IMG/VR virus record: IMGVR_UViG_3300032257_000002
Coordinates: 64,001 to 103,505 of that record
Source of the DNA: a virus
Lineage: Duplodnaviria; Heunggongvirae; Uroviricota; Caudoviricetes
Strand: one strand, 5' to 3'
Length of the DNA stretch: 39,505 nt
This document shows positions 10,803 through 38,684 of this stretch, one piece after another (the first letter of the stretch is position 1; each line of letters begins with the position of its first letter). The notes under the pieces are model-generated. The model was not told the origin of the DNA. It was given only the letters and a program-made list of their open reading frames with translations, and did no database searches. The position numbers were made by a program, and so were the translations under genes.

Positions 10803-11051
10803 TTAGATGAATAGTTCAGGATAGCAATCCGCTATCATTTCTAGGACCTGTTCAGAAGTAACCTTGTCTTCTGTAAGTGCGAGTGAGTAAGCTTCAGGTA
10901 CACCTGCTACAAATAATGCAATAATGTGTTGACAAGATTCTATATCATAGAAAGTACTAGCGGTAAAGTGTAAGCCTGTTCGTACATTAAGTATACGAGC
11001 AACTTGATTAAGTAGTGCGCTCTGTGAAAGTTGTAAGTCGATATGTGCCAT
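10803..11051 (-). CDS. Hypothetical protein, tag YPELFI
   Basis: ORF with AGGA RBS and terminal tag. Confidence 0.8.
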   Translation of the reverse strand: MAHIDLQLSQSALLNQVARILNVRTGLHFTASTFYDIESCQHIIALFVAGVPEAYSLALTEDKVTSEQVLEMIADCYPELFI

Positions 11052-11059
11052 AATAATCC

Positions 11060-11626
11060 TTAGTGTTTAACGAACTGCGGAGTCTGAGTAGCTGCCTGCG
11101 AAGTCCAGCAGTAATCGCAGTCGATCCCGCATTGTTTTGTCTTGTCAAGTGTAGATGGGCAGATAAATCGTGACGGATCTAGATTAGCTAGTTTGTCGTA
11201 ATTCAGTCCACCGGATTGCAGTGAGTCGATGAGTGTGAAGTTCGGAAGGGCTTGTAAACTAGTGAAGTCAAAGTCTTTCAGTCGTTTTGTAAAGGCGTAG
11301 AACTTAATAGATGGTAATGTGCTGGCTATTGCTGTCCATGACTCTATGTATGACTGCGAATAAAATTCTCCAGAAGCATGAAGTCGGATTGCTTTAAATG
11401 GTTTTCTAATAGCTTTTATTTCTTTTACCATATTAGGTATAAAATCAGTTTGTTTGGACGCCTCATACCGCGCGTTTCTTGCCGGTATTACTGAAGTAGG
11501 AAATCGTTTTTGTTCACGTAGGCTGTAGCACCCGGGACACTCTCTTCCACATACTTCTTTTGATGTGATAATATTAAACATATATTGGTTATGTAGTTTC
11601 TGGTTTCCTGGTTGTAGTAGTTTCAT
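11060..11626 (-). CDS. Gp88-like protein with CxxxCxxC motif (radical-SAM-like)
   Basis: VCGRECPGCY, IRLHASGEFYS, FYAFTK; start lies inside the endonuclease 3-prime end with its own AGGA RBS. Confidence 0.75.
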   Translation of the reverse strand: MKLLQPGNQKLHNQYMFNIITSKEVCGRECPGCYSLREQKRFPTSVIPARNARYEASKQTDFIPNMVKEIKAIRKPFKAIRLHASGEFYSQSYIESWTAIASTLPSIKFYAFTKRLKDFDFTSLQALPNFTLIDSLQSGGLNYDKLANLDPSRFICPSTLDKTKQCGIDCDYCWTSQAATQTPQFVKH

Positions 11627-12317
11627 TGTCTAATCCTAGTATGTCTATTATAAAGAGTTCGGTATTACCACTTGAAAGTAAGGCAGGACCTTGGTATTTA
11701 TACTCTTTGTATTGCCGCAATATCCGAGTCTCCTCTTCCAGTGCACCTAATCCTTCTGTGTATTTCCAGACTTTAAGGATTGTTATTGTTTTCAAATCGG
11801 CTACTAGAAATCTTTCCTCCACAGAACGATTAGTTATACCTATCTTGTAAGCTTGTCCGTTATTGATTGATATATAGTATAAGTATCCAGGTAGTTGTGT
11901 TTTAAACCCACCATCATACAGTTGACACTTTCCGCATCCATGCCCTTTTAAATGGTGATTTGGGGTTTGTGTAAACTTTCCATGTTCTGGGCAGACAATA
12001 GTAATTTTTGTGTGAATGTTTTTATATACCACATTACTATAATTATACTTATTTTTATGTGTTATGGAGGCAGTTTCTATAAAGTCTTCTTGAGCGGTAG
12101 AAAATTTAGCGGCCAGTTTATCATACTGACATTGTCGACAGCCTCTTCCTTTATTCTGTAAGTGGTTATTAGGGGTTTGTTGAAATTCCCCATGAGTAGG
12201 GCAAGTAATTACTACTTTTGTGCGATTATTTTTATAGACTGTGTTATTATAGGTATAAAAATTATTATGTAGTAGTTGGGCTTCTTTTATAAATTCTGCT
12301 GTTGTTTTCTTTTTCAT
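11589..12317 (-). CDS. Free-standing putative homing endonuclease (CxxC repeats plus T5orf172/GIY-YIG-like C-terminus)
   Basis: Two ITCPxHG.F.QTP..HL..GC..C repeats; YLYYI..YKIGIT..R..GNTELF. Confidence 0.8.
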   Translation of the reverse strand: MKKKTTAEFIKEAQLLHNNFYTYNNTVYKNNRTKVVITCPTHGEFQQTPNNHLQNKGRGCRQCQYDKLAAKFSTAQEDFIETASITHKNKYNYSNVVYKNIHTKITIVCPEHGKFTQTPNHHLKGHGCGKCQLYDGGFKTQLPGYLYYISINNGQAYKIGITNRSVEERFLVADLKTITILKVWKYTEGLGALEEETRILRQYKEYKYQGPALLSSGNTELFIIDILGLDNETTTTRKPETT

Positions 12318-12333
12318 GTAAAACCTTTACTGC

Positions 12334-12356
12334 ATAATACCCTACACTACGTTAAA
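12334..12356 (-). promoter_or_regulatory. TTTAAC-N11-TATTAT promoter variant
   Basis: 17 nt upstream of ATG 12317, N11 spacing. Confidence 0.55.
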
Positions 12357-12362
12357 ATCAGC

Positions 12363-12452
12363 TTAACTGCATACAGCTTTGCCTGCTGGGATAGAGAAGA
12401 TTAGCTGGTGTTTAAGTTTGCCGTTTTCGTATTTCAGTAGTTTTTCAGTCAT
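12363..12452 (-). pseudogene. Stranded original N-terminus of the Gp88-like gene (MTEKLLKYENGKLKHQLIFSIPAGKAVCS*)
   Basis: 12/25 identical, ungapped, to the N-terminus of 11060..11626; starts by ATGA overlap with the upstream gene. Confidence 0.85.
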
Positions 12453-12772
12453 ATCAAGACCTCCGGGTAGTTAGTTTGTAAGTATTTATAGAATGATGGG
12501 TGTGAATCCTGTATACGTTGTGTAGGTGTAGCTTGCATGTAGAAGTCGTGTCTGTCGAAGTACACCTCTAGCCATTCTAGAAATGCAGGAGTGCATTGTA
12601 AAGGCTCATCTAATATAAAGACTTTATTGCGGGTTAATGAAATCTCGCAAATAAGAGCTTGTCTATCTATATACGTACAGTCTACGTAACACCCATTCAG
12701 TTTATCTGCTAACTCCTTTAAGTAGGTAGTTTTTCCAGAAGATCGTGGGCGTAGCATAAATTCTTTAATCAT
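12449..12772 (-). CDS. Small P-loop-like protein, tag YPEVLI
   Basis: RPRSSGKTT Walker A-like, FILDEP Walker B-like. Confidence 0.75.
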   Translation of the reverse strand: MIKEFMLRPRSSGKTTYLKELADKLNGCYVDCTYIDRQALICEISLTRNKVFILDEPLQCTPAFLEWLEVYFDRHDFYMQATPTQRIQDSHPSFYKYLQTNYPEVLI

Positions 12773-13014
12773 ATGTATAACTCCGGGTAGTGGATTTTAA
12801 ATTCCTGTTCATCGAAAATAAGGTCACGTACATAGTAGTATCTGTCATCATCACGTTCTTTGTAGCTAATAACTTCAAGCTGTAGTTTGCTGTAGTCGAT
12901 TGCAGGATAAGTTTCTTCTATATAGGCTTCTATATGATGATGTAGATCACTAGTAGATACACTGCTGTGTAGTCCTGCAAGAAGATCGTAAAGCTCAGAA
13001 CGAATTAATGTCAT
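12769..13014 (-). CDS. Hypothetical protein, tag YPELYI
   Basis: ATGA-coupled ORF with terminal tag. Confidence 0.8.
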   Translation of the reverse strand: MTLIRSELYDLLAGLHSSVSTSDLHHHIEAYIEETYPAIDYSKLQLEVISYKERDDDRYYYVRDLIFDEQEFKIHYPELYI

Positions 13015-13211
13015 ATTAAGTACTCCGGATATTGATGTTTAAATTCTTGCAAGCGTTTATAAGCTACGCAAAATGATCGTTGACACTTGCGTTGATCCTT
13101 TCTGTAACCTCTCTCTATTTCGTTGTGGTTATACGCATAGACATAACTATACCAATAGTCGTAGTCCATAGCGAGAAGATAAAGTTTATCGTCAAATTCT
13201 TTTTTAGTCAT
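13011..13211 (-). CDS. Hypothetical protein, tag YPEYLI
   Basis: ATGA-coupled ORF with terminal tag. Confidence 0.8.
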   Translation of the reverse strand: MTKKEFDDKLYLLAMDYDYWYSYVYAYNHNEIERGYRKDQRKCQRSFCVAYKRLQEFKHQYPEYLI

Positions 13212-13429
13212 ATTAGCAGTTCTGGGTAGTACTTAGCGATCAACTTATCTAGTAACTCTAGTTTTTGGACTAGCTCCTTACCAGTAATCTGATAGGAGTC
13301 TATGCTAACGGTCGTGTCTGCATGTATAGTTATAGACGCAAATAATGAAGTATCGGAGAGACTACTATTAGTAATATAGCTGTTCTGCACAGTACAAGTA
13401 TTTAAAGTAGTTGATGTCAGTTGATTCAT
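13208..13429 (-). CDS. Hypothetical protein, tag YPELLI
   Basis: ATGA-coupled ORF with terminal tag. Confidence 0.8.
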   Translation of the reverse strand: MNQLTSTTLNTCTVQNSYITNSSLSDTSLFASITIHADTTVSIDSYQITGKELVQKLELLDKLIAKYYPELLI

Positions 13430-13632
13430 ATGTAAACCTCCGGATAATGTTGTTTAACAAGCTCAATAACAGTTGATAATGGTAAACCGCCGAAGTGTTC
13501 CTTGCACAAGTCCCGTTCATTCGTTTGTTTTATTCGGCGTTGCACTTCGTCACAAATATGCGCTTCGGCCTTATAATAACCATCAGCTAAGGCAAACTGA
13601 CTTTCCGAGTATGTTGTAGGGTTAAGTGTCAT
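13426..13632 (-). CDS. Hypothetical protein, tag YPEVYI
   Basis: ORF overlapping the pol stop, with terminal tag. Confidence 0.8.
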   Translation of the reverse strand: MTLNPTTYSESQFALADGYYKAEAHICDEVQRRIKQTNERDLCKEHFGGLPLSTVIELVKQHYPEVYI

Positions 13633-15454: not shown

Positions 15455-15739
15455 TTATATAAATAGTTCTGGGAATTCGGCTTGTAACTCTTTGATAGTA
15501 GGTAGTTTATCGAGCTTTTTAATTAATGTGGCATCAGTAGCTCGTATACTATCTGGTGAACAACCTGAATGATATAAACCAGCGCTAATACACGTCTCAC
15601 TGTCCTCTCGTATAGGTAACGATATAAAATGCAAAAAGCCATCATTATCTACAGTTCCTGGAAAAATTATCCAATGACGATATTCATCATCATTAGACGA
15701 AACTCCGTCTAAGTATAACCCTGGTTCAGGTAAGTACAT
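15455..15739 (-). CDS. Hypothetical protein, tag FPELFI
   Basis: GGAG RBS, terminal tag. Confidence 0.8.
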   Translation of the reverse strand: MYLPEPGLYLDGVSSNDDEYRHWIIFPGTVDNDGFLHFISLPIREDSETCISAGLYHSGCSPDSIRATDATLIKKLDKLPTIKELQAEFPELFI

Positions 15740-15747
15740 AATAACTC

Positions 15748-17163
15748 CTATAGGTATTGAGCGTTATTCAACGCTTTAGCTGCACGTGTACATGCTACGT
15801 AGTAAAGATTCAAGGATTCTAGTTCGTTAGGTTGTAACATTGTACAAGGATCGGTTTTGAGTAAGGCTAGTGGTTTGCTGATGGACTCATTCAAGTCAGA
15901 TGCAATGGTGACTTCGTCGAATTCTAGACCTTTGCAGGAATGTGCAGTGGTTAGTATGTAAGATTGATCAGAGCGCTCATGATTACGAGCTTCTTTATAA
16001 GCTTGCATAATAGCAGGGACTCCGTGCATACCTATAAGACGAACAGCTTGCTGTAGAGTGAAGTCGTCTTCGTGGACTTTTGCGATGTAGCGAAGTACTG
16101 TTTTGTATTCACGTTGTAAGCTAGTGGTCTCATACCAGCGATCTACATCTGATTGAAGATGCTTGTAAGCTGCATCTGTAATGAAGCCTTTATGTTTGAG
16201 TCCGATTAACATTAGAGGCATCTTAAAAATCTCCGTAGCTTTGCGAACTAGGCCATAGGGTTTATGAGCTGTGTTGAGCTCGATCATCTTTGAGATAAGT
16301 GCACTATTCGTTCGGGTTATATAGGCCTGTGATCGGATGGTAGAATCAGTCATAGGAATACCTAGGAAAGACATCTTCGGATCAAGATAGGTCTGACAGA
16401 ACTTTTCAATACGAGTAGCTATAAAATCAGCAACTCTAAATGATTTCGACATTCGGAAAATAGTGCCTTCGTTTTGTAATACTTCGAAGCAATTGATAGT
16501 ATGATTGAAAGTGTAGATGTTCTGAAATGGATCACCAACAGCAATCTTACGTATAGCTGGTAGAAGACGAAAGATTTCTAGTGTGACTTCGTTGAGATCT
16601 CCGGCTTCATCTAGCATAAGGAAGTCAAATGGATCGTATTGTAATTCTTCGTTGGCTAACAAGATATGAAATAGTTTAAGATAGAACTCGTGAGTACAGT
16701 CGATCTTGCCGGATTGCATAGCTGCAAGGTATTTGTTAGCAAGTGGTGCAGAAACTGCTAGTTGACGATCAGCGATGAAGTCATCAAATGTAGTAAATTT
16801 CGATAAGCAGAACTCACGAATAGCGTTCACTAGATTCACTTTGTCTGTATAGTCCAGCCGTTCTTCGATATTTCGGTAATTGAAGATACCTAGTTTAAGC
16901 TTCATGGGTTTGACAGTGGCTTGATAAGCTAGTGAGTGAGTAGTGACACAATTAGTAGATTTCGGAAACTTGCGAGATGCTTCAGTGGCAATAGATTTAT
17001 TGTAGGCCAGATAACAGGCGTTGGTATGCGGTATGGTATTCGCTATACTAACTAGCATGGTTGTCTTGCCGGAGCCTGCTACAGAGTCGATAAGTGTAAG
17101 ACCTTTACCAGCGTCGCTAACGACATGGTTGAGAATGGTGGTTTGTTCGGGAGTGTGGTTCAT
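15748..17163 (-). CDS. Superfamily 1 (UvrD-like) DNA helicase
   Basis: VAGSGKTT, LDEAGD, VGDPFQNIY, TAHSCKGLEF, YVACTRA. Confidence 0.92.
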   Translation of the reverse strand: MNHTPEQTTILNHVVSDAGKGLTLIDSVAGSGKTTMLVSIANTIPHTNACYLAYNKSIATEASRKFPKSTNCVTTHSLAYQATVKPMKLKLGIFNYRNIEERLDYTDKVNLVNAIREFCLSKFTTFDDFIADRQLAVSAPLANKYLAAMQSGKIDCTHEFYLKLFHILLANEELQYDPFDFLMLDEAGDLNEVTLEIFRLLPAIRKIAVGDPFQNIYTFNHTINCFEVLQNEGTIFRMSKSFRVADFIATRIEKFCQTYLDPKMSFLGIPMTDSTIRSQAYITRTNSALISKMIELNTAHKPYGLVRKATEIFKMPLMLIGLKHKGFITDAAYKHLQSDVDRWYETTSLQREYKTVLRYIAKVHEDDFTLQQAVRLIGMHGVPAIMQAYKEARNHERSDQSYILTTAHSCKGLEFDEVTIASDLNESISKPLALLKTDPCTMLQPNELESLNLYYVACTRAAKALNNAQYL

Positions 17164-17627
17164 ATGAATAGCTCTGGGTAAGTGTCTATAATGGATTGAA
17201 TACTAGGTACCTTTTCCTGTTCAGCTATGAGTTGTTCAATAATTTTAGTGAACTCTTCATGTCGATTAGCGATCTGTTTTGAAAGCTCACTAACTTTAGC
17301 AGCGATGGCTAGCTCAGGTGTAGCGTATAATGACGAACTCCATGAACTAATGGATTTAAGGGATTTAAGGGAATGCTTTATTTTATTACTTCCGTTCCAT
17401 GAAGATACATACTTAGATTTAAGAGAGGCTTTAGTGTCGTAACTAGTTACAATACCGTCTTGAAGTGTGTAAGCTTTGCCGGTAGGTGTTATGGTTGTTT
17501 CCTTAGGACCATAACCTGAAGGTTTTTCTGAGATTTCGACTTCGTAAGTACGGATAGTTTTTCCGGTTACTTTACCAGTAGTGGATACGTAAACAGGTTC
17601 TACGAGATATGCGATTTGTTTTGCCAT
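17160..17627 (-). CDS. Hypothetical protein, tag YPELFI (start corrected to MAKQI)
   Basis: AAGGA RBS before ATG 17627. Confidence 0.8.
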   Translation of the reverse strand: MAKQIAYLVEPVYVSTTGKVTGKTIRTYEVEISEKPSGYGPKETTITPTGKAYTLQDGIVTSYDTKASLKSKYVSSWNGSNKIKHSLKSLKSISSWSSSLYATPELAIAAKVSELSKQIANRHEEFTKIIEQLIAEQEKVPSIQSIIDTYPELFI

Positions 17628-17637
17628 TAAGTTTCCT

Positions 17638-17901
17638 TTATATATAGAGTTCGGGATAGTTTTCAGGTGTATAGGATGTGATATTATTCTTATTAGGGTT
17701 GTAGATTGCGGTAAGATGCTTGCAGAATGTGGCACAATCACCATTGTATGGAAAATCTGCAAATAAAATGTTTTGTTGTTTAATCTTAATACTGTTAAGT
17801 ACAACACTTCCATACTTCTCTAAATGGTCTTTTTGGGCGGAGAAAAAAGCATAGTATGTACATAAATTTTTTGTAGGGTGGTAGTATATCATATAGGTCA
17901 T
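17638..17901 (-). CDS. Hypothetical protein, tag YPELYI
   Basis: AAGGA RBS before ATG 17901. Confidence 0.8.
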   Translation of the reverse strand: MTYMIYYHPTKNLCTYYAFFSAQKDHLEKYGSVVLNSIKIKQQNILFADFPYNGDCATFCKHLTAIYNPNKNNITSYTPENYPELYI

Positions 17902-17910
17902 AAGCATCCT

Positions 17911-18132
17911 TTAAATAAATAGTTCTGGGTATCGAGCTTGCGCATCAGTTAGTGATTTGCAGGTAAATAAGTAAGTAGTTAACACACTTTCTTTAGTAGC
18001 TGAAACAGGAAAGGCCTCCCCTTTTCGGATGTTTTCGAAAGCATTAGTAAGTGATATAGCAATTGTACACAGCTGTGCATCAGCAAAAGTAACTCGGTAT
18101 TTATTGGTGTCGGTGCGATATACTTTATACAT
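17911..18132 (-). CDS. Hypothetical protein, tag YPELFI
   Basis: ORF with RBS and terminal tag. Confidence 0.8.
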   Translation of the reverse strand: MYKVYRTDTNKYRVTFADAQLCTIAISLTNAFENIRKGEAFPVSATKESVLTTYLFTCKSLTDAQARYPELFI

Positions 18133-18662: not shown

Positions 18663-19238
18663 CTATACTTCTGCCGGTTTATTTCCCGATGTAAGATGGC
18701 GATAACAAAGAAATTCTAATAAGGACTTTTGGCCTTTAGATAAATTACATGAAGGGCAAGAGATTGCTAAATTAGCTAATTCATGTTTGCCGTTTTGGTT
18801 TAAAGGTTCTACATGGTCAACATGAAAATTCTTTGAACAGTTAACTCCACAGTACACACAAAGTTTAATCTCTGTAGTTACCCACGCTCGATATTCTGGT
18901 CCGTTAAGATCAGAATCTTGTTTCGCTCTGCGTCGTACTGTTTCATTGTTCTGTTTTAAAAATTTAATTTTATCTTTGTTTTCTTCTCTGTATTTTTTTC
19001 GTACTTCTCTACCACCGTTTTCAAGATACTGTTTATGGTATTTTGAGAGTTGTAATTTGTTTTCTTTACGGTACTCTTTGTGGTATTGTCGTAGTTTTTC
19101 CTTGTTTCGCTTTGCGTATTCTTTTTTTGCTATACTAATACAAGATTTGCAATGGGGATGAAACCCATCAGGTTTAGTCTTATCTTTATTGTACTCCGAA
19201 TACGGTTTTTCTATTTTACATTTTGTACAAGTTTTCAT
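18663..19238 (-). CDS. Intron-encoded HNH endonuclease with N-terminal Zn finger
   Basis: CTKC..CKSC; CVYCG..HVDHVEPL..GKHELANLAISCPSCN; AAGGA RBS before ATG 19238. Confidence 0.9.
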   Translation of the reverse strand: MKTCTKCKIEKPYSEYNKDKTKPDGFHPHCKSCISIAKKEYAKRNKEKLRQYHKEYRKENKLQLSKYHKQYLENGGREVRKKYREENKDKIKFLKQNNETVRRRAKQDSDLNGPEYRAWVTTEIKLCVYCGVNCSKNFHVDHVEPLNQNGKHELANLAISCPSCNLSKGQKSLLEFLCYRHLTSGNKPAEV

Positions 19239-19260
19239 AGTGTTCCTTACGGTTTTAGAA

Positions 19261-19283
19261 ATCATAACGAACATTTACTTAAA
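19261..19283 (-). promoter_or_regulatory. TTTAAG-N11-TATGAT promoter
   Basis: 23 nt upstream of ATG 19238. Confidence 0.65.
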
Positions 19284-20259: not shown

Positions 20260-20655
20260 CTAGATGAAGTATTCAGGGTACTTAGCAGATATACGTTGCC
20301 AAGCTTCTGGATATTTGTCTCGGTGATACGTTGCGGTGTTAAATAACTCGATGTAAGCGTGATCTTCAGACATAAAAAACCCAAATGTCGGTAAATTATG
20401 TACGAACATTCTTATCTTTTTTAGCGCTACTCTAGGGTAACTCCTATAGATGTATGGGTTGTCACTTAAAAATACTTTCTCGCTGATAACACCGCCGTGA
20501 CGAATGTGGTAAGTAGTAACAGTTTTTAGAAGTTTATATTTCGGTACTATAGTAACTAGTGGACCACTAGGTAAGTCTAAAGATGGTCTGTATTCAGGCC
20601 AGATAGTTTTATCTAGTGAACCTAAATCTGTTTGTAAATGTTTGGCTATATACAT
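20260..20655 (-). CDS. Hypothetical protein, tag YPEYFI
   Basis: ORF with terminal tag. Confidence 0.78.
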   Translation of the reverse strand: MYIAKHLQTDLGSLDKTIWPEYRPSLDLPSGPLVTIVPKYKLLKTVTTYHIRHGGVISEKVFLSDNPYIYRSYPRVALKKIRMFVHNLPTFGFFMSEDHAYIELFNTATYHRDKYPEAWQRISAKYPEYFI

Positions 20656-21071
20656 AATTCAGGATGTTTGATTTTTAATGTATTCTGTACATCTATAGGA
20701 AGTTCGACAAACTCATAAGATTCAGTGTCTATATCAATAGACTCTGAGTAGTAACCATTAGATTCACCATGCCAACGAAGGTCTACGTAACCTTTTGCAG
20801 ATGCAAAGGTGTAGAAGGTCCACGTCTGTGAAGTATAGCTATCTACCATTTCTGGAGAATTGGAACGTTCTTCAGCTTTGATAAGTGGCGTATATAGAAG
20901 TTTGTCAGGAGAGCCTGTTAAACTTTCAAGGTACACAGACTCACAACAATCTTGTTCGTGGTAAAGTTTTACTTTGTAACCATTTGTAAGGTAAAATGTA
21001 AAATAGTCTTCTTCATTCGTTGCGATGTAGATAGGGATTTGCCCTACCAGAGCTTCGATGTTGTTAGTCAT
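20646..21071 (-). CDS. Conserved phage protein (HEQDCCESV / TWTFY / GESNGYYSE family), tag HPELCI
   Basis: Motifs recalled from a widespread phage hypothetical family. Confidence 0.8.
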   Translation of the reverse strand: MTNNIEALVGQIPIYIATNEEDYFTFYLTNGYKVKLYHEQDCCESVYLESLTGSPDKLLYTPLIKAEERSNSPEMVDSYTSQTWTFYTFASAKGYVDLRWHGESNGYYSESIDIDTESYEFVELPIDVQNTLKIKHPELCI

Positions 21072-30401: not shown

Positions 30402-30659
30402 CTATATAAACAATTCTGGGTGTGATTGTTTTGTAGGTAGCTCGTTGAATGCACCTGCAATTAAGTAATGTCTACCTGCAGCCCATTTTGACATAGTATC
30501 TAAAGAAATAGTACGAGGAAAGTTCCAGCTACCTATATAATCAAAAGGAAGTGATAAACATTCAGTAATGGCATCACTCCAATCTATAGAAGATTGATGA
30601 GATTCAGGGCACATTAGTATAAACTCATTATCCCATTGATCTTGTATTAAGTAATACAT
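30402..30659 (-). CDS. MYYLI-family protein, tag HPELFI
   Basis: Paralog of 31253..31510. Confidence 0.82.
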   Translation of the reverse strand: MYYLIQDQWDNEFILMCPESHQSSIDWSDAITECLSLPFDYIGSWNFPRTISLDTMSKWAAGRHYLIAGAFNELPTKQSHPELFI

Positions 30660-30667: not shown

Positions 30668-30970
30668 CTAAATTAGTAGTTCTGGGAATTTTGTTAAGAA
30701 GTCAGATGGATGTTCGGCTTTAGCGAGATGAATTGTTTGTATGTATAGATCGCTGTTGCTTCTTAATGCTTTACAATATTCTTCAATCGTAGAGAAATCA
30801 TGCATAACAATGGTTCCATCGTCATCATCAGGTGCTTCGCAACCTTCAATAGCAGTATGGACGATTTCTTGTAGTGATCCCCATTGACCATTTCCATGCC
30901 AGCAGTTTTTGATGTCGTCAATAATTGCAAATGAATCCCGAGCTTCTTGGTCAGTGATAAGATGGTACAT
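30668..30970 (-). CDS. MYHLI-family protein, tag FPELLI
   Basis: AAGGA RBS, terminal tag. Confidence 0.8.
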   Translation of the reverse strand: MYHLITDQEARDSFAIIDDIKNCWHGNGQWGSLQEIVHTAIEGCEAPDDDDGTIVMHDFSTIEEYCKALRSNSDLYIQTIHLAKAEHPSDFLTKFPELLI

Positions 30971-30979: not shown

Positions 30980-31243
30980 TTAAATAAATAATTCTGGATA
31001 AGATGTTTTAAACCAAGCTAAATCACGATCTTGGAATTCAGAGATAAGTGGAGTAATAAGTTGTCTAAAGTTTAATTCGTATACTTCACGAGTACGACTT
31101 TCAGATAAAGTTTCACAGGCTCTACTTGCTGGGCAATTATCACATACTCCGGTAGTCGAACATTCTGCGTAATCAGCTAAATCTGTAACATGTCCTTGTT
31201 CCACTGCTTGTAAAAAATTGATGTACATAGTTATAGGGTGCAT
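30980..31243 (-). CDS. Four-Cys hypothetical protein, tag YPELFI
   Basis: CSTTGVCDNCPASRAC. Confidence 0.8.
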   Translation of the reverse strand: MHPITMYINFLQAVEQGHVTDLADYAECSTTGVCDNCPASRACETLSESRTREVYELNFRQLITPLISEFQDRDLAWFKTSYPELFI

Positions 31244-31252: not shown

Positions 31253-31510
31253 TTAAATAAATAATTCTGGGTGAGACTGTTTTGTAGGTAACTCGTCGTA
31301 AGTACTAATAAGTTTCCAGTCATATCCTTCGGCCCATTCACGCATTCCTGATTCAGATTGATCATCAGGGTAAGTCCATTCGTGAGCACCATCTGTCACT
31401 AAGTTAAAACATTTTGAAATACTGTTATACCAGTCATACGATGACCTGTTATTTTTAGGGTTTACAATAATATAATCAAAATTAATAGGGTCGTAAATGA
31501 GATAATACAT
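31253..31510 (-). CDS. MYYLI-family protein, tag HPELFI
   Basis: Paralog of 30402..30659. Confidence 0.82.
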   Translation of the reverse strand: MYYLIYDPINFDYIIVNPKNNRSSYDWYNSISKCFNLVTDGAHEWTYPDDQSESGMREWAEGYDWKLISTYDELPTKQSHPELFI

Positions 31511-31518: not shown

Positions 31519-33771
31519 TTAAAATAAACGAGCTATCTGATTTTGCATTGCTTCTGAGCGAACTTCTTCGAATGGTACATCCCAGTATTCTTGAATATCT
31601 GCGTAGAGTGATTTAGCGTCTTCCAAAGAACCGCCGAGCTCACGAAGATGGTACATAGCTCGTATAACATTACGAGATGCAGAACCCCATGGGGCTTCAA
31701 ATGCGTAGTTGAACGTAGTGAGTGGATCTTTCAATTGTGCTGATTTTTGAGCAGAGGTAAATGTCTGATCTTTGTGCTTTTTATCGGCTTCCAGTTCTTT
31801 GGCACGAATGAGATAAGGACGAGCTTCCAATGGAGAAGCATCTAGGTTGGAAATAACTGGACGATCGGCATAGCTAAAGAATATTTGAGATTGAGGTAGT
31901 GGATCTACTCTGAGCGCCAAGTCTTCTGCTATACCTAGATAGAAGTGCTTCCAAGCAATCGGTGAAAGTTCGACGGTAGAGTCTAGCTCGATGAGTACTC
32001 GGAACTTGTACTCGTTGTCAGGATCACTAGATAAGGCGATATGATGGTTTATGTCGGATAGCATGAAGTGAGCTTCAGATGCTGTAATAGGTGAATCATC
32101 TATGTCTAAGACTACCCACTTGGTTCCACCAAGAATGTTTTCTTTACCGCGAACTCCGTTACGGAATTTAAACGGTGAATAAGCATAGTCACCTTCTAAT
32201 AGGTTTGAGAGATCGTTGAAAGTAGTATCGTTGACATCAAAGCCATATGCGGTAGTGACAGAGATATCATGTTTAGCAGTTCTTACAGCTTCAGAATCAC
32301 CATTAGTGATAGCAATGTTAAGTCGTGTACAATCAATGGGTTTAAATGATATGCCCACAACTTCAGTTTTAATAATCGGTTCATATTGTAATGCACCTCC
32401 TTCGTTGATTATTGAGTAAATACCAGAGGTATCGTAGCCGGAAGCTAGGTGAACTAGTTCTTGCAGCTTTCCATGGGATACTGAGGTTACGTAGTTGTTT
32501 TTCTTTAGGTCATATACAGATATAACTGCTTTGCCGTTTTCTTGTACTTGAGTTTTCATAAAATCTGCAAAATGTTCATAAGGCGATTTACTAATTTCGG
32601 TTTCGAAGTTGTGTATATCATCAGATAGCATCTCAATAAATTGCATAGCTTGTTCGTAGTGATGTTTCTGTATACTAGAAGCTTTCTCTATGAAGGCAAA
32701 TGTAGAAGATAGTTTTAAAGCACGCCACTGATTGTGTAAACGTACAAGAGAACTTAGAGAATCGGGATTGGTTGACTGAGCTACGTAATCTTTATTATAT
32801 CTTCGGTAAAGTTTGAATAATTGATCTACTTCAGTACTAACTGGTAAAGGTGTGTTAGCGTGAGTAATCCCATATTTAGCAACATCAATAAAGTAGTCTT
32901 CTATTAATTCTCTTGCTTTTGCGGCTTTATCATCTTGGACTTCTTCATATTCTAGTAGTAATAGGGGATCGTTGCTGAAATCAGGTTCAGGTAAAACTTC
33001 GTTGTTGAAGTATATTATAGATCTACGAGCTAGTTTAGAAGCTAGTGCATTTATAAATTTATGCCTAACTGCTTCATTGTACATAAGAATATTATAGCTA
33101 CCCATTAAAAGAGCGTTAGTAGGTACACCTGTTAGCTTTTTAGATCGGAATTCAGAACCTTTTGTGTTTTTAGCTGGTATATCCCCTAGATCATAAGAGA
33201 TTGCTAATGCTTTAATCAACTCGTCTGTGTCCTTGTTGCTGGAGAATTCATCACTCATTTCTGAGGTTACGACTAAAGGGGCTCCTAGAGGCGCTGTCAT
33301 GATTTCTTCTGCCAAGGCTACAAAACCTGGAGCAGTAGTAAATGCTGTCTCATAAGTAGGACAGTATTTGCGGTAGTTGTTATACACTTCAGGTACACTA
33401 GGTAATTCCTCACCAGCTTTCTGTGCTTCTTCTATAGCTTTTTGAACCAAGGTATCTTCTACATGGGCATCGATAATTTTGTAAGCTTTAGCAAATGCTT
33501 TAGAAGCCATCTTGTAAGAGGAGTCTTTACCTACTCCTGAACCGGCGGCAATCACCGTGATAGCGTTAGTAGGGCAGATGGTGCCGTCTTTGAGTTCTGC
33601 AGATCGTCTGAACTGTGAGGCAAAAGTGGTTAATACGCTTACTGCAATTGTGTATTTCATACGGTCAGGCACGTTAATTACAATAGTGTCTGAAATTTGT
33701 TTAATTAGGTCGTTAGCCTTTGGGTTAAGAGCTTGGCCTAAAGTTTGCGTTAGCGAATTTAGCATTGACAT
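31519..33771 (-). CDS. N4 gp43-like primase: N-terminal P-loop domain plus C-terminal AEP primase domain
   Basis: AGSGVGKDS Walker A; WVVLDIDD and HIALSS...KFRV AEP-type motifs; start inside the endonuclease 3-prime end with an AAGGA RBS. Confidence 0.75.
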   Translation of the reverse strand: MSMLNSLTQTLGQALNPKANDLIKQISDTIVINVPDRMKYTIAVSVLTTFASQFRRSAELKDGTICPTNAITVIAAGSGVGKDSSYKMASKAFAKAYKIIDAHVEDTLVQKAIEEAQKAGEELPSVPEVYNNYRKYCPTYETAFTTAPGFVALAEEIMTAPLGAPLVVTSEMSDEFSSNKDTDELIKALAISYDLGDIPAKNTKGSEFRSKKLTGVPTNALLMGSYNILMYNEAVRHKFINALASKLARRSIIYFNNEVLPEPDFSNDPLLLLEYEEVQDDKAAKARELIEDYFIDVAKYGITHANTPLPVSTEVDQLFKLYRRYNKDYVAQSTNPDSLSSLVRLHNQWRALKLSSTFAFIEKASSIQKHHYEQAMQFIEMLSDDIHNFETEISKSPYEHFADFMKTQVQENGKAVISVYDLKKNNYVTSVSHGKLQELVHLASGYDTSGIYSIINEGGALQYEPIIKTEVVGISFKPIDCTRLNIAITNGDSEAVRTAKHDISVTTAYGFDVNDTTFNDLSNLLEGDYAYSPFKFRNGVRGKENILGGTKWVVLDIDDSPITASEAHFMLSDINHHIALSSDPDNEYKFRVLIELDSTVELSPIAWKHFYLGIAEDLALRVDPLPQSQIFFSYADRPVISNLDASPLEARPYLIRAKELEADKKHKDQTFTSAQKSAQLKDPLTTFNYAFEAPWGSASRNVIRAMYHLRELGGSLEDAKSLYADIQEYWDVPFEEVRSEAMQNQIARLF

Positions 33772-34669
33772 TAAAGTCCTTTATAATTAAATTTAAAATG
33801 TTTCTAGAAAATAGTTCAGTATTGCCGGACGAAAGTAACGGATCTCCTGTATACTTATAGTTGCTATATTTTTTAAGTATACTTTGCTCCATTTGATAAG
33901 CTGTAGAAGCTGCCGGAAAATCCCATAAATATAGTATGTTAATACTAGTAAGTTCTTTTACTAAGAATCTTTCGTTCACAGTTCGGTTAGTAATACCTAT
34001 TTTGTATGCTTCTCCGTTATTAATAGATAAATAATACAATATAGCCGGTTTAGTTAAATTAAAGCCGTGTAAAGCACAATGCGGACAGCCACGGGTTCTT
34101 AGTAAATTATCAGGAGTAGTCTTGAAAGTACCTCCACATTTATGGCGTACTTCAATCTTAGTTCTTGCAGTAACGTAGTTTCCTACTACAGTATAGTCAG
34201 TACCCAATTTTTTAGAAAAGTTTTTAGCTGCTTGTACTTGTTTATCTTTATTTGTCTGTATTAGTTTTTGCACTGAACACACTTTGCAAGTTTTAGCTTT
34301 TAGATGGTTAATAGGTATTACAAGGGATACAGTTGCACAGCTGTTATGTTTTATTACTACTGGTGTTAAAGCATTTTTATAAACTACTTTAGCGTAGTCA
34401 AAAGCATCACCATGTATAGCTTTAGCCTCAGTAACAAATTCTTCCGTAGTTTTAGTTCTACTATCAGGCGTATCTTTGGAACAATGGGGGCATCCCTGTT
34501 TTCCAGATAAGTGATTATTAGGTTTCATAGCAAAAACACCGTGCTGTCTGCAAGTAATTTTTACTTTTGTATGACTAGTTGTATACACGGTATTTTCGTA
34601 AGTGTACATGTTATTATGTACTGCATTGGCTTTAGTTTTGAATTCTTCAGTAGTTAATCGTATAGGCAT
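33725..34669 (-). CDS. Free-standing putative homing endonuclease, paralog of 11589..12317
   Basis: Three CxxC repeats; LYYLSINNGEAYKIGITNRT..ERF..LLSSGNTELF nearly matches the 11589 ORF. Confidence 0.8.
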   Translation of the reverse strand: MPIRLTTEEFKTKANAVHNNMYTYENTVYTTSHTKVKITCRQHGVFAMKPNNHLSGKQGCPHCSKDTPDSRTKTTEEFVTEAKAIHGDAFDYAKVVYKNALTPVVIKHNSCATVSLVIPINHLKAKTCKVCSVQKLIQTNKDKQVQAAKNFSKKLGTDYTVVGNYVTARTKIEVRHKCGGTFKTTPDNLLRTRGCPHCALHGFNLTKPAILYYLSINNGEAYKIGITNRTVNERFLVKELTSINILYLWDFPAASTAYQMEQSILKKYSNYKYTGDPLLSSGNTELFSRNILNLIIKDFNVNAKFANANFRPSS

Positions 34670-34821: not shown

Positions 34822-34830
34822 TTTGTGTCC

Positions 34831-35097
34831 TTAGATAAAGTATTCTGGATATTTAAGTTTAAGCTCTTCGAAGTTTGAGATATTAAGTGGAGTACAGGTA
34901 GTAATAGTATCACCACCATCTGTTTTCATCTTATCAGGAAGAAAAGTAGTGTTATTGGCCATATTTTTAGTTAGTTGGTATAGAGCTGTTTCTGCGGTCT
35001 CGCACCATGGTCCGGCATTAAAACCTTTAAGTATTTTAAAATCAGAATTAGCTACTGCGTAGTGGAATTCCATCTCACGTTTTAACAAGTAGTACAT
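34831..35097 (-). CDS. MYYLL-family protein, tag YPEYFI
   Basis: AAGGA RBS, terminal tag. Confidence 0.8.
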   Translation of the reverse strand: MYYLLKREMEFHYAVANSDFKILKGFNAGPWCETAETALYQLTKNMANNTTFLPDKMKTDGGDTITTCTPLNISNFEELKLKYPEYFI

Positions 35098-35105
35098 TAC
35101 AGTCC

Positions 35106-35483
35106 TTATATAAATAGTTCAGGATTGTTCTTTTTAAAATCAGAAGTATTGAAGTGAGCGTCGTGCAGTACTCCATCTGTATCGATATATTGGAATGAAA
35201 TCACTTCGATGTCATGTAGTCCGTATCCTGAGCTAGGGATATAATCCCATAAACATTCTGTAATATCATCAGATAAATTTACAGAGTTACGATCGGATAG
35301 CTCACCCCAGCCTTTGATGTCTCCATTAAATAAGTAGTAAAAAGCGAGTACGTTGTCTTCTAGTTCGGCTAAGGTGACAGTAGAAGATTGTTCAGTATAG
35401 TCGCCGTCATTAGTATCACCTTCGACAGTTAATAGATAGACATCTTTTTCAGTAATAGGTGTGTGAGTAACAAATTTTGACAT
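35106..35483 (-). CDS. Conserved phage protein (GDTNDGDY motif), tag NPELFI
   Basis: AAGGA RBS, terminal tag. Confidence 0.8.
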   Translation of the reverse strand: MSKFVTHTPITEKDVYLLTVEGDTNDGDYTEQSSTVTLAELEDNVLAFYYLFNGDIKGWGELSDRNSVNLSDDITECLWDYIPSSGYGLHDIEVISFQYIDTDGVLHDAHFNTSDFKKNNPELFI

Positions 35484-35492
35484 GTAATTCCT

Positions 35493-35708
35493 TTAAATTG
35501 TATATTCTGGATGTATTTTAGCGATTTTATCATATATGTGCTGTGCTTCTTCTTTAGTATTAAAATATGTTAATTCGTTTAGCTGTTCAAAACCTATATC
35601 GTCCATAGCAGTATCCCAATTGATAATTTCGCCAGTTGTTAAAATGTACATATCGTCAGTAATAGCAATAAAATACTTATCAAATGTGGATAACTTAATA
35701 ATTCTCAT
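35493..35708 (-). CDS. Hypothetical protein, tag HPEYTI
   Basis: RBS, terminal tag. Confidence 0.78.
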   Translation of the reverse strand: MRIIKLSTFDKYFIAITDDMYILTTGEIINWDTAMDDIGFEQLNELTYFNTKEEAQHIYDKIAKIHPEYTI

Positions 35709-35716
35709 AATAGCCC

Positions 35717-35992
35717 TTAGATTAGTAATTCTGGATAGCGGTTAAATAGTTGTTTTGCGGATGAGATATCAGTACCATCAATAGATAAGATTACAGGATG
35801 TTTATGAAACTCGTCGTGTAAGCAACCGTAGGTAATACACATTGCACGAGATGGCTGTTCAGAGGTATTCCAAGCGCTCTCAAAATAGCAACAAAATGCT
35901 TCATGCATATTATCGCCTGCTGTTATAGCGGCCATACCATTGTCGTTGAAAATAAGAAAATAGTGATGGTACCATTTAACTAGATGTAACAT
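35717..35992 (-). CDS. Hypothetical protein, tag YPELLI
   Basis: AAGGA RBS, terminal tag. Confidence 0.8.
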   Translation of the reverse strand: MLHLVKWYHHYFLIFNDNGMAAITAGDNMHEAFCCYFESAWNTSEQPSRAMCITYGCLHDEFHKHPVILSIDGTDISSAKQLFNRYPELLI

Positions 35993-36647: not shown

Positions 36648-36683
36648 AGTATGCTCCTAGATGTATTCTTCAGGGTATTTTTT

Positions 36684-37022: not shown

Positions 37023-37030
37023 AAAGACTC

Positions 37031-37453
37031 CTAAAGAAATAGTTCAGGAAAGTTTTCTATACAGTAAGCTTTCGCAATTTTTAAATTTGTTGAATGTTGA
37101 ATCTTATGGTTAGTCCATGTAGCCTTATGCAGTGTCGATGAGTATGTTAATTTAGAAGGTGTATTACAAATATTACAATCGTAATCTGAAAAGTTCTTAG
37201 CATCCTTACGTATATGTTTACCTTTCAAAGCTTTAAAACATGAATGGCAAACAGTAAAAGTTTTTGAACAACTGAGGTTCGCTTGTGTAAAATCTTTTCG
37301 CAATGCCTGGATATCCGTACGTGTAAATGTCATTTCTTCTAATATGTCGTCCGGTATAGCATGTAAATTAGATAAAGCTTCTGTAGTTTGTCTAATTTTA
37401 CGGTAGCGTGTACCTGCGAGTTGACGCTTGCTGAGTGGTGTATACGAAAACAT
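37031..37453 (-). CDS. Zn-ribbon hypothetical protein, tag FPELFL
   Basis: CHSC and CNIC pairs. Confidence 0.8.
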   Translation of the reverse strand: MFSYTPLSKRQLAGTRYRKIRQTTEALSNLHAIPDDILEEMTFTRTDIQALRKDFTQANLSCSKTFTVCHSCFKALKGKHIRKDAKNFSDYDCNICNTPSKLTYSSTLHKATWTNHKIQHSTNLKIAKAYCIENFPELFL

Positions 37454-37461
37454 AAGAATCC

Positions 37462-37734
37462 TTATATAAAGAGTTCAGGATACTGTTCTTGAAAAGTATC
37501 AGGATCGATAGGTAGTGTACTACGATAGATGCAGTGAAAAGTTTTACTGAGACATGTATTAATAAATTCGTCTAAAGTCATATTAACTTCCTCTGTACTA
37601 CTTAAATCAAGAGGTGTATTAATTGCTGACATAATATTACTCTTCCATTCGGACCAATCTGTTCTATATTTATCGTAAAAACCGTACCAACAACGTCCAG
37701 TAGATATATCCTGCATAAGTACGTACTCAATCAT
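37462..37734 (-). CDS. Hypothetical protein, tag YPELFI
   Basis: AAGG RBS, terminal tag. Confidence 0.8.
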   Translation of the reverse strand: MIEYVLMQDISTGRCWYGFYDKYRTDWSEWKSNIMSAINTPLDLSSTEEVNMTLDEFINTCLSKTFHCIYRSTLPIDPDTFQEQYPELFI

Positions 37735-37742
37735 TTGCAGCC

Positions 37743-37973
37743 TTATATGAAGTATTCTGGATATTTATTACGGGCTTGAGTTTCTGTTAAAAGATTTTTA
37801 ACGAATGTTCGACGACGTGTAGTGTTTGCAAGTCTGAAGGTGTATATACATTTAGTATCAGAAAATACTACTTTATTTTCATTAAGTTTAGGTAAATAAA
37901 GAAGTGTCTTCCAGTCTGTATCATAATAATACGGTGCGTAGAAAAGATGGTTCTGTAAATCATGATTTTTCAT
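37743..37973 (-). CDS. Hypothetical protein, tag YPEYFI
   Basis: ATGA-coupled, terminal tag. Confidence 0.8.
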   Translation of the reverse strand: MKNHDLQNHLFYAPYYYDTDWKTLLYLPKLNENKVVFSDTKCIYTFRLANTTRRRTFVKNLLTETQARNKYPEYFI

Positions 37974-38212
37974 ATAAGAAACTCCGGATATTGATTTTCA
38001 AAGGATTGTTGATCAAATGTTTTTAAAAATTCTTCGTAAGGTTGATAACCACTATGCAATATACAATTTCCATCTTTAGAAATAATGCAATTATTACAAG
38101 AGTCGATACCGAATATTCTACATGTGGTACCGCTGGCTCTTAAGTTATTAAGTGTAGAGTACGACTGTTTAAAAATATCCCAAAAATCAGGATGAAGTTC
38201 TGCGATGTTCAC
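37970..38212 (-). CDS. Four-Cys hypothetical protein, tag YPEFLI
   Basis: CRIFGIDSCNNCIISKDGNC. Confidence 0.8.
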   Translation of the reverse strand: MNIAELHPDFWDIFKQSYSTLNNLRASGTTCRIFGIDSCNNCIISKDGNCILHSGYQPYEEFLKTFDQQSFENQYPEFLI

Positions 38213-38220
38213 GATAAACC

Positions 38221-38457
38221 TTATATAAGTAATTCCGGATACTCGTCAAATATACCATCATCTTTGCAAAGTGATAGTGCGTATTCTTGACATGACATAT
38301 GTAAGTCATAACTAGCGGATAAAGGACAATCTTCACACATCATATCCTTACAGTATCCTTCATTAACTGCGTATGAAAATGTAAATGTTTTTGGCTCAGG
38401 AGTAGGGTTAAAACTCCATATAATAGGATAATCGCCTATAGTATGCTTGATTGTCAT
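38221..38457 (-). CDS. Four-Cys hypothetical protein, tag YPELLI
   Basis: CKDMMCEDCPLS...C. Confidence 0.8.
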   Translation of the reverse strand: MTIKHTIGDYPIIWSFNPTPEPKTFTFSYAVNEGYCKDMMCEDCPLSASYDLHMSCQEYALSLCKDDGIFDEYPELLI

Positions 38458-38465
38458 AGTGGTCC

Positions 38466-38684
38466 TTAAATCATGTATTCTGGAAAGTCATCTGGATGAC
38501 CTAGAAGTACGGTATCGTTATTCTTGATGTGTTGCTCAAAAACGCTACCTGGCCAATCGTAGTCTGTATAACGAAGTAAAAAAGTATATGTTGAAGATGT
38601 AGTACGTGTTGCATCGTAAGTACCTATAAAAATGTTACCAGTGTTTAACACTAGTTTATACAGGTACCCATCCCTCATTTCCAC
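38466..38684 (-). CDS. Hypothetical protein, tag FPEYMI
   Basis: Overlaps the AAA ATPase stop; terminal tag. Confidence 0.78.
   Translation of the reverse strand: MEMRDGYLYKLVLNTGNIFIGTYDATRTTSSTYTFLLRYTDYDWPGSVFEQHIKNNDTVLLGHPDDFPEYMI

Follow-up and report, generated by a model that had tools for sequence, protein, structure and literature searches.

A C-terminal tail shared by dozens of unrelated small proteins of an N4-related marine phage, with a MoxR/VWA-zincin pair as candidate reader

Why should dozens of small proteins encoded by one phage, with little else in common, end in nearly the same six residues? The question is raised by the last 39.5 kb (39,505 nucleotides, the window hereafter) of a 103.5-kb viral contig, IMG/VR record IMGVR_UViG_3300032257_000002; the whole genome is called G000 here. 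A stop-to-stop set of open reading frames (ORFs) of at least 60 amino acids (aa) comprises 124 ORFs in the window, 38 of which end in P-E-x-x-[I/L]; these all lie on the minus strand, within 10803-38693. Position -6 is Y in 25 of them, F in six, H in five, R in one and N in one; P (-5) and E (-4) are present in all 38; position -3 is L in 27, Y in seven, F in two and V in two, and the last residue is I in 37 and L in one. The initial annotation, made from the sequence alone, had reported these same 38 ORFs, and a recount reproduced its figures exactly, including the fixed distance of the invariant P and E from the stop. Shuffling the residues within the 124 ORFs gave a mean of 0.04 such tails and a maximum of 2. 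Over the whole genome, 52 to 53 tails were found (ca. 30% of the gene calls), with the consensus [Y/H/F]-P-E-[L/Y]-[F/L]-I-stop and Y33, H10, F7 and N2 at position -6. The full motif occurs internally only once, versus 52 to 53 times at the end, which ties it to a free C-terminus. A position-specific count of the G000 tails also recovered the amphipathic element that had been described ahead of the tail: hydrophobic residues occupy position -10 in 85% of the tails and -13 in 52%, with K frequent at -9, so that the module must be longer than six residues. We are nearly certain that this is a real, portable C-terminal tag selected at the protein level. The tagged genes of the window are as follows, with the adjoining MoxR-type gene in the last line.

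10803-11051, minus: tagged gene, 82 aa, end CYPELFI; operon end
12449-12772, minus: tagged gene, 107 aa, end NYPEVLI; weak AAA_14 match; ATGA overlap, CCG GAG
12769-13014, minus: tagged gene, 81 aa, end HYPELYI; ATGA overlap, CCG GAG
13011-13211, minus: tagged gene, 66 aa, end QYPEYLI; ATGA overlap, CCG GAG
13208-13429, minus: tagged gene, 73 aa, end YYPELLI; ATGA overlap
13426-13632, minus: tagged gene, 68 aa, end HYPEVYI; ATGA overlap, CCG GAG
15455-15739, minus: tagged gene, 94 aa, end EFPELFI
17160-17627, minus: tagged gene, ca. 155 aa (revised start 17627), end TYPELFI; tagged orthologues in three related contigs
17638-17907, minus: tagged gene, 89 aa, end NYPELYI
17911-18132, minus: tagged gene, 73 aa, end RYPELFI
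20260-20655, minus: tagged gene, 131 aa, end KYPEYFI; no close downstream gene; operon end
20646-21071, minus: tagged gene, 141 aa, DUF7448 at residues 7-114 plus a 27-aa extension, end KHPELCI
21825-22049, minus: tagged gene, 74 aa, end KYPELFI; operon end
22058-22321, minus: tagged gene, 87 aa, end NYPELFI
23733-23984, minus: tagged gene, 83 aa, end SYPELFI; no close downstream gene; operon end
23984-24256, minus: tagged gene, at most 90 aa, end TYPELFI
24265-24531, minus: tagged gene, 88 aa, end LHPELFI
24541-24867, minus: tagged gene, 108 aa, ProQ_C-like domain, end NYPEFFI
24878-25231, minus: tagged gene, 117 aa, end TRPELLI
25241-25738, minus: tagged gene, 165 aa, weak nucleotidyltransferase match, end NYPELLI
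26563-26868, minus: tagged gene, 91-101 aa, end QFPELSI
26835-27065, minus: tagged gene, 76 aa, end KYPELFI; ATGA overlap
27062-27322, minus: tagged gene, 86 aa, end KYPELFI; ATGA overlap, CCG GAG
27319-27669, minus: tagged gene, ca. 116 aa, end AFPEYFI; ATGA overlap, CCG GAG
30402-30659, minus: tagged gene, 85 aa, end SHPELFI; paralogue of 31253-31510
30668-30970, minus: tagged gene, 100 aa, end KFPELLI
30980-31243, minus: tagged gene, 87 aa, end SYPELFI
31253-31510, minus: tagged gene, 85 aa, end SHPELFI; paralogue of 30402-30659 (37% identity)
34831-35097, minus: tagged gene, 88 aa, end KYPEYFI
35106-35483, minus: tagged gene, 125 aa, end NNPELFI
35493-35708, minus: tagged gene, 71 aa, end IHPEYTI
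35717-35992, minus: tagged gene, 91 aa, end RYPELLI
37031-37453, minus: tagged gene, 140 aa, end NFPELFL (the only Leu end in the window)
37462-37734, minus: tagged gene, 90 aa, end QYPELFI
37743-37973, minus: tagged gene, 76 aa, end KYPEYFI
37970-38212, minus: tagged gene, 80 aa, end QYPEFLI; ATGA overlap, CCG GAG; paralogue at genome 4084-4341
38221-38457, minus: tagged gene, 78 aa, end EYPELLI
38466-38684, minus: tagged gene, 72 aa, end DFPEYMI; directly downstream of the MoxR gene
38684-39505, minus: MoxR-type AAA+ ATPase (AAA_5), C-terminal 273 aa, with the N-terminal 197 aa at genome 2-592; candidate reader subunit

Nearly all carriers are small, with a median of ca. 85 aa and a range of 45 to 165 aa. 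Inside 10803-38684 the tail is found on about 38 of the ca. 40 genes shorter than 170 aa and on none of the recognizable enzymes (>200 aa). Calling it universal, as was done at first, is nevertheless too strong, given that ca. 25 small leftward ORFs elsewhere in the genome (5.2 to 6.9 kb and 11 to 23 kb, adjoining the RNAPII gene) have no tail. This untagged block is probably the early region, and the tagged genes would be middle genes. Five more tagged genes lie on the plus strand (genome 27021-28360), at the head of the rightward block and just upstream of the structural genes, and the tag is therefore not restricted to a single transcription unit. One ORF needed correction, the one originally drawn as 17160-17813, which most likely starts at 17627, since TAA-AGGA-N6-ATG is the standard junction after the tagged gene 17638-17907. 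A 28-codon antisense ORF on the plus strand (35158-35244), within the tagged gene 35106-35483, ends in YPELGI and is most likely a chance match.

Is it the peptide or the nucleotide sequence that is being kept? The codons vary as had been claimed (P as CCA, CCG, CCT and CCC, E as GAA and GAG, six Leu codons, ATA, ATT and ATC, and all three stops). Among the 38 tagged genes of the genome that do not overlap the next one, P-E is typically written CCA/CCT-GAA (GAA in 36 of 38, CCA or CCT in 34 of 38), and the synonymous sites, including the choice of CTN or TTR for Leu, occur at genome codon frequencies. The argument for selection on the peptide thus holds up, with one exception. Of the 14 genes with an ATGA overlap between their stop and the following start, 11 to 12 have CCG-GAG versus 2 of the 38 elsewhere (Fisher p, ca. 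4e-8 to 4e-7); GGAG then stands 8 nt ahead of that ATG, and the last codon is forced to ATA. At the other junctions the stop is immediately followed by (A)GGA-N5-7-ATG. The tail is kept whatever the type of junction, and the synonymous freedom serves to embed the ribosome-binding site of the neighbor; both a peptide and a nucleotide layer are present, and the peptide is primary. In the Vibrio myoviruses phiKT1024 (OM249648.1) and SRILMA (PP083314.1), position -3 is often Glu, with GAG-GAA immediately before ATA-TGA, and there the tail doubles as the Shine-Dalgarno (GAGG) of the next gene. Such junctions, in tightly coupled genes, are what would be expected if the motif were a nucleic acid or translational signal in the first place, be it the ribosome-binding region of the next gene, a recombination linker for cassette shuffling, or a nascent-peptide signal in the exit tunnel acting at termination or re-initiation. 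We consider this very unlikely. The CCA/CCT-GAA of the 38 nonoverlapping genes has no Shine-Dalgarno content, yet P-E is invariant in them, with Leu in both CTN and TTR codons. Tagged genes also stand at operon ends (20260, 23733, 21825 and 10803), and the untagged enzymes of the same operons are coupled as tightly as the tagged genes; both facts argue against coupling or termination as the reason for the motif, and the ribosomal role suggested in the initial annotation is unlikely. A universal ribosomal effect would, moreover, not be confined to one phage group or change a residue across a whole genome, as described below. A scan of the window against Rfam matched no family, hence there is no recognized intron or RNA element at the gene ends.

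The carriers themselves are unrelated, as had been stated. After removal of the last seven residues, the 52 proteins fell into 49 BLAST clusters (E < 1e-3), with three paralogous pairs among them, and their Pfam matches are to different families: DUF7448 (E = 1e-25), a ProQ_C-like domain (Tudor/SH3-like), and weak matches to a nucleotidyltransferase and to the P-loop family AAA_14. PADLOC and NCBIfam scans of the 38 tagged proteins of the window provided nothing relevant. The DUF7448 carrier (20646-21071) is the clearest example of portability. The domain stops at residue 114 and is followed by 27 more residues that end in the tail, while 107 of the 120 best database matches end right at the domain; the 13 with a tail include most of the closest relatives, and all of them have a 20- to 25-residue extension ending in [Y/H]-P-E-x-x-[I/L/V]. 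For the ProQ_C-like family, a word-indexed search found no relatives and an exhaustive HMMER search found 29 (31 to 51% identity), of which 25 keep the tail, including matches to the N-terminal domain only. The nucleotidyltransferase-like carrier had one relative by word-indexed search. Across six genomes, homologous pairs were tagged on both sides in 21 cases versus 2 in which only one member was tagged, with an identity of 32% in the body and 70% over the last six residues. All this leaves next to no likelihood that the carriers are one diverged paralogous family with the tail as the last conserved element of a common fold. Small phage proteins do diverge fast, and the three paralogous pairs do exist. 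Against such a family stand the 49 clusters, the spread of sizes from 45 to 165 aa, the differing Pfam families and a DUF7448 domain that ends 27 residues short of the tail and usually does without it. We therefore rejected it, and with it the common fold that the initial annotation had named as its own refutation.

The motif holds ca. 25 bits of information, too little for significance against a library of 1.8 billion proteins, and contigs were searched with degenerate DNA patterns for Y-P-E-L-F-I-stop and Y-P-E-Y-F-I-stop. Many uncultured viral contigs were recovered, with GC contents of 20 to 45% and sizes of up to 235 kb; in those fetched whole, the tails make up 10 to 49% of the genes. 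Among cultured phages, phiKT1024 and SRILMA have 47 pattern matches each on the coding strand versus 0 in the control, and ORF calling in phiKT1024 gave 79 tagged genes out of 343 (23%). AD45-P1, a close relative of G000, has only one to three tails. The tails agree more within a genome than between genomes, and each lineage has its own dialect:

G000: terminal Ile in 51 of 53 tails
L089 lineage: terminal Leu
L098 lineage: terminal Phe
L217 lineage: terminal Val
phiKT1024: Glu frequent at -3
146-kb IMG/VR contig (146,525 bp; G015, locus L095): P-H-L-F-L throughout

The last case is the most extreme. Its 21-kb locus has 12 to 17 P-H-L-F-L tails with no aromatic preference at -6, and over the whole genome there are 11 P-H-x-F-L pattern matches versus 0 to 1 in controls and not a single P-E tail. 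No homologues of the 17 P-H-tailed proteins of the locus were found by BLAST against all the fetched ORFs. Gene conversion is an unlikely cause of the dialects because the synonymous sites have not been homogenized. On the other hand, if the tails coevolve with a single lineage-specific reader, a residue that is otherwise invariant would be predicted to change in concert over a whole genome, as it does here. The concerted dialects are thus the strongest argument for the existence of a reader, and we think it probable that one coevolving reader exists.

Which protein could it be? We compared G000 with phiKT1024 and with contigs of 224 and 97 kb, three tail-rich phages with which it otherwise shares almost nothing. 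Only two of its proteins have a homologue in every one of them, the MoxR AAA+ ATPase and a DUF2201 protein. The latter (genome 2010-3242, minus strand, 410 aa) joins a zincin metallopeptidase domain (DUF2201_N) to a VWA domain (DUF2201) and is called VWA-zincin here. Both genes sit amid tagged genes, and four more tagged genes follow the VWA-zincin gene. Each tail-rich record with a completeness of at least 37% has AAA_5 and DUF2201, as does G000, and DUF2201_N was found in seven out of seven such records. The DUF2201 protein is rare, with homologues in only 129 of 50,697 cultured-phage records. The three best matches are the tail-rich Vibrio phages phiKT1024, phiTY18 and SRILMA at 44% (tails counted in the first and the last), followed by AD45 at 38%, with ordinary N4-like phages at 22 to 27%; phages with only a distant homologue (22 to 28%: AR9, Slickus01, Vibrio 2.275.O, CRP-7 and the N4-like SBP1) have no tails. 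It should be noted that this protein is annotated as “HNH endonuclease” in many other phage records, a label that is likely mistaken. A maximum-likelihood tree placed all the marine DUF2201 homologues in one supported clade (95/97), apart from the ordinary N4-like sequence, with tail-bearing members in every subclade. In IMG/VR, where a single protein query found nothing and an alignment had to be used as the query, tails were present at 24 of 30 loci of clade members (102 in 532 kb) versus 5 of 80 control loci around PhoH (9 in 1283 kb; Fisher p = 5e-14), and the positive controls came mostly from contigs whose PhoH is the most similar to that of G000 (37 to 50% identity). The tail is confined to phages with one clade of MoxR and VWA-zincin genes.

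The features of the VWA-zincin protein are compatible with such a role. Both the HExxH...H of the zincin and the metal ion-dependent adhesion site (MIDAS; DxSGS, GGT and TDG) are intact, and the modeled C-terminal domain resembles CMG2, integrin I-domains and the MIDAS domain of Mdn1. All of these capture an acidic ligand residue. On the side of the tail, Glu is 100% conserved in all the P-E genomes and replaced by His throughout one, the P-H contig, whose VWA-zincin protein departs from the consensus beside two MIDAS residues (P344A, and G365L in TDG). A first hint of covariation with the dialect comes from the residue that follows the MIDAS Asp, which is G in most lineages with tails ending in I, and L or M in three lineages with tails ending in L or F. 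A complex prediction of the VWA-zincin protein (27-row alignment), Zn, Mg and the C-terminal 40 residues of the tagged protein 21825-22049 gave no verdict (score, 0.05; mark, 0.32) and weighs neither way on binding. On this circumstantial basis, drawn from sequence comparison, the MoxR/VWA-zincin pair is a tentative candidate for the reader, somewhat less likely than the existence of a reader as such. In the general model for these machines, the MIDAS site of the VWA protein captures a peptide of the substrate and the MoxR ATPase then remodels it (PMC7159879). In the phage, a portable module of ca. 13 residues, in which a short amphipathic helix (with hydrophobic residues at -13 and -10 and frequent K at -9) leads into [Y/H/F]-P-E-[L/Y]-[F/L]-I-COOH, has been added to many small proteins that are otherwise unrelated and are encoded in the replication-gene block, probably by middle genes. 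On the proposed mechanism, the free tail would dock on the VWA-zincin protein, with the invariant Glu (His in one lineage) as a metal ligand at either the MIDAS site or the zinc of the zincin, while the three hydrophobic residues at the end would fill an adjacent pocket, and the MoxR ATPase would then remodel the client, release it, or feed it for cleavage. Four functions had been put forward initially. Docking to a shared hub fits best, given the concerted genome-wide change of the tails and their restriction to one MoxR/VWA-zincin clade; a degron could still be accommodated, either through such docking or through a ClpP-like protease; the ribosomal role is unlikely, as shown above. The fourth, a packaging or injection signal, has no support and was rejected: it would require the packaging of 50 small middle-gene products, and there is no link to the structural genes. 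We favor, although with less than even confidence, the tail as a docking tag by which one lineage-specific partner, with the MoxR/VWA-zincin pair as the best candidate, would handle about a third of the phage proteins.

Several observations weigh against this assignment. Phages with a DUF2201 protein of the same clade can be tail poor (AD45-P1 and contigs of 306, 127 and 111 kb), so the pair is not sufficient for the tails and must have another function. MoxR-vWA pairs tend to be present anyway in N4-like phages and in the T4-like jumbo phages of “group 2.2” (PMC7824862); there are thus few independent lineages, and the association may partly reflect ancestry. DUF2201_N was not found in four tail-rich fragments, which are 8 to 28% complete and too incomplete to be informative. 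In the lineage L076/L077 (IMG/VR contigs of 39 and 52 kb), with 15 tails in 21 kb, the zincin motif reads HNxxH, i.e., the catalytic Glu has been lost and the three zinc-binding His kept; cleavage can therefore not be the conserved step, whereas docking could be. A Mg-MIDAS ligand is a poor fit to the E-to-H dialect; a site with a transition metal, for instance the zinc of the zincin, suits it better. A ClpP-family gene, present in five of the six tail-rich genomes examined, offers an alternative phage-encoded partner. Finally, the AlphaFold2 model of the DUF7448 carrier (pLDDT 92) shows the extension as a helix (126-135) followed by an H-P-E-L-C-I turn (pLDDT ca. 90). The tail may thus be structured rather than disordered, and the model is also compatible with an intrinsic structural element.

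Such an element would be a cap without any external reader, made of a helix, a Pro kink and a hydrophobic turn, which either stabilizes tiny proteins or lets the tagged proteins self-associate or coassemble. The hydrophobic positions -13, -10, -6, -3 and -2 have a heptad-like spacing, Pro and Glu are favored in the first turn of helices, and the carriers are nearly all small. Yet DUF7448 domains fold without the tail in 107 of 120 homologues, a generic cap need not be placed at the exact free C-terminus (1 internal match versus 52 terminal ones), and it would neither change in concert across a genome nor be limited to phages with one gene pair. The pLDDT is also a measure of local confidence and no evidence of packing. 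We regard the cap as quite unlikely.

The other partner to be weighed is a protease. The tail could be a degron or docking peptide for host ClpXP/ClpAP, FtsH, Lon or a Tsp-type enzyme, or for the ClpP/NfeD-like protease of the phage, by which small middle proteins would be turned over at set times. A hydrophobic free C-terminus is a feature that ClpX, FtsH and Tsp classically recognize, and the genome-specific dialects could equally follow host-specific readers. ClpP-family genes are found in G000 (split), G001, G005, G010 and phiKT1024. G000 also has an SPFH/Band_7 gene (genome 13426-14718), whose products are the usual partners of NfeD proteases. A universal host machine, on the other hand, leaves unexplained both the restriction to one DUF2201 clade and the E-to-H switch of a whole genome. 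No ClpP-like gene turned up in G004, a tail-rich contig that is 85% complete, and there is one in the tail-poor AD45; the ClpP of phiKT1024 (164 bits) and the NfeD-like genes (46 to 49 bits) are probably not orthologues; and ClpP-family genes are common in phages, so that their co-occurrence weighs little. The ClpP-like protease is thus a weaker candidate reader than the MoxR/VWA-zincin pair, and turnover by another protease is, in our judgment, unlikely, if less so than the cap. The gene itself (CLP_protease, E = 2e-12) is split in the window on the minus strand at 5435-5713 and 6462-6839, with ORFs of 125 aa for the N-terminal part and 92 aa for the C-terminal part and an HNH_3 endonuclease gene inserted between them (5737-6309, minus); no group I intron model matched it, and the related contig G001 has a single 203-aa ORF.

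As for its source, G000 is an N4-related marine phage. It encodes a split virion RNA polymerase, a family-A DNA polymerase, a UvrD-type helicase, a primase, an rIIA-like protein, a ribonucleotide reductase and PIN-PhoH. Among cultured phages, the Alteromonas podoviruses vB_AmaP_AD45-P1 to P4 stand closest to it (59% DNA polymerase identity), and megablast with 19 kb of the window gave no match to cultured phages at the DNA level. The two parts of the MoxR gene lie across the contig ends (38684-39505 and genome 2-592), and where they meet the reading frame is off by one base. A second source gives the contig as 103,519 bp versus 103,505 bp, and the frame break is probably an assembly or trimming artifact of a circularly permuted genome. 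The PhoH gene (window 4025-5401, minus) codes for an N-terminal PIN fusion (PIN_4 plus PhoH, 458 aa) that is kept at 37 to 55% identity in related contigs, the 224-kb contig and phiKT1024. Nearby, a dCMP deaminase (3628-4059, minus; E = 1e-22) and a DUF3310 protein (6829-7206, minus) beside the ribonucleotide reductase genes make up an ordinary nucleotide-metabolism module. At least five free-standing homing-endonuclease-like genes (DUF723/T5orf172/CapR-type, HNH and I-HmuI-like) are scattered among the replication genes, one of them between the VWA-zincin gene and the tagged genes upstream:

window 11589-12317, minus: homing-endonuclease-like gene
window 18663-19274, minus: homing-endonuclease-like gene
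window 23004-23618, minus: homing-endonuclease-like gene
window 33725-34669, minus: homing-endonuclease-like gene
genome 3203-3943: homing-endonuclease-like gene

No pool of genes of unknown function is larger than that of the small early and middle phage proteins, and a tag shared by 25 to 30% of the proteins would be a common handle for them; a single pull-down could reveal the common partner and define the regulon of host-takeover proteins, and the cultured phages phiKT1024, phiTY18 and SRILMA make it testable. The tag is also an annotation marker that confirms real small genes and their stops, and it may serve as a portable tag in synthetic biology. The broadest version of our proposal, that a clade of marine phages, N4-like as well as T4-like, labels a quarter to a third of its proteins for client handling by its own MoxR/VWA-zincin machine through a Glu/His metal contact, is possible but doubtful. 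If true, no consensus tag would have been known before this one for a MoxR-VWA system, and the virus would use the machine for chaperoning, timed removal or processing. A MoxR/VWA-zincin reader would mean the first sequence-defined substrate signal for these machines, whose recognition of clients is a long-standing question; for the role of the pair in phages there has been only a guess, virion assembly.

How does this tail compare with known systems? The initial annotation knew of no described motif like it, and our literature searches, with motif strings and for tag descriptions in papers on N4-like phages and phiKT1024, found no description either. Free, partly hydrophobic C-termini read by one hub on diverse proteins are known from ssrA/ClpX, the XB peptide of SspB, the DDDIPF of SSB and the clamp tails of T4 gp43, gp33 and gp55. 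The phage tail differs in having no LAA, acidic run or Q-L-x-L-F, and in marking many clients, not one hub, through a tag encoded in a quarter to a third of the genes. The tails end in [L/Y]-[F/L]-I and none in AA, as ssrA-like tails would, and, unlike in the sliding-clamp motif (QL[SD]LF), there is no Q among the residues listed from -6 to -1; the invariant P-E is foreign to that motif. The capsid targeting sequence of T4 is also a short phage-encoded peptide, placed on unrelated phage proteins and read by phage machinery, but it is N-terminal, cut by the prohead protease, and found on a handful of packaged proteins from late genes. Short C-terminal signatures on dozens of unrelated proteins per genome are typical of PEP-CTERM/exosortase, LPXTG/sortase and GlyGly-CTERM/rhombosortase. 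PEP-CTERM-type tags share with ours the Pro-Glu core and the presence only in genomes with a dedicated partner, inferred by phylogenetic profiling. They require, however, an N-terminal signal peptide, a transmembrane helix and a basic cluster after PEP, whereas in each of the 52 tails the chain ends three residues after P-E, the carriers look cytoplasmic and the genome is that of a phage. None of the 38 tagged proteins matched the NCBIfam sorting-signal models, and no exosortase (EpsH) turned up in Pfam scans of 29 larger untagged ORFs, which were not a dedicated search for it. Such genome-wide C-terminal sorting tags with a dedicated partner are, even so, the formally closest system.

With regard to the candidate reader, the comparison is with the MoxR/VWA systems in which the MIDAS takes an acidic residue of the client (Mdn1/Rea1 with the Glu of the Ytm1 and Rsa4 UBL domains, CbbQO-Rubisco, NorQD and RavA-ViaA; PMC7159879). 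The phage pair likewise has a MoxR ATPase and a VWA domain with an intact MIDAS that matches their structures. Known systems have one or few clients without a portable consensus tag, while the phage would have up to 30% of its proteome, and its VWA domain is fused to a zincin peptidase, unlike theirs. The MoxR-vWA-peptidase pair of jumbo phages, for which no tag was mentioned, has been proposed to act in virion assembly (PMC7824862), in contrast to the early or middle proteins considered here. FxSxx-COOH peptides (Haft and Basu 2011; Kaur et al. 2020, PMC7159879) come closer in their gene neighborhood, being small, fast-diverging proteins conserved only in a C-terminal motif and linked to a zincin and a vWA-MoxR pair. 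They belong to actinobacterial conflict systems with another motif and one precursor per system, which is cleaved and modified by a radical-SAM enzyme. In the phage the FxSxx motif is absent and there is no NCBIfam match (a radical-SAM enzyme was not searched for specifically), and the zincin is fused to the VWA domain. With their linked zincin and vWA-MoxR genes, the FxSxx-COOH peptides are nonetheless the nearest genomic analogue of the phage tail and its candidate reader.

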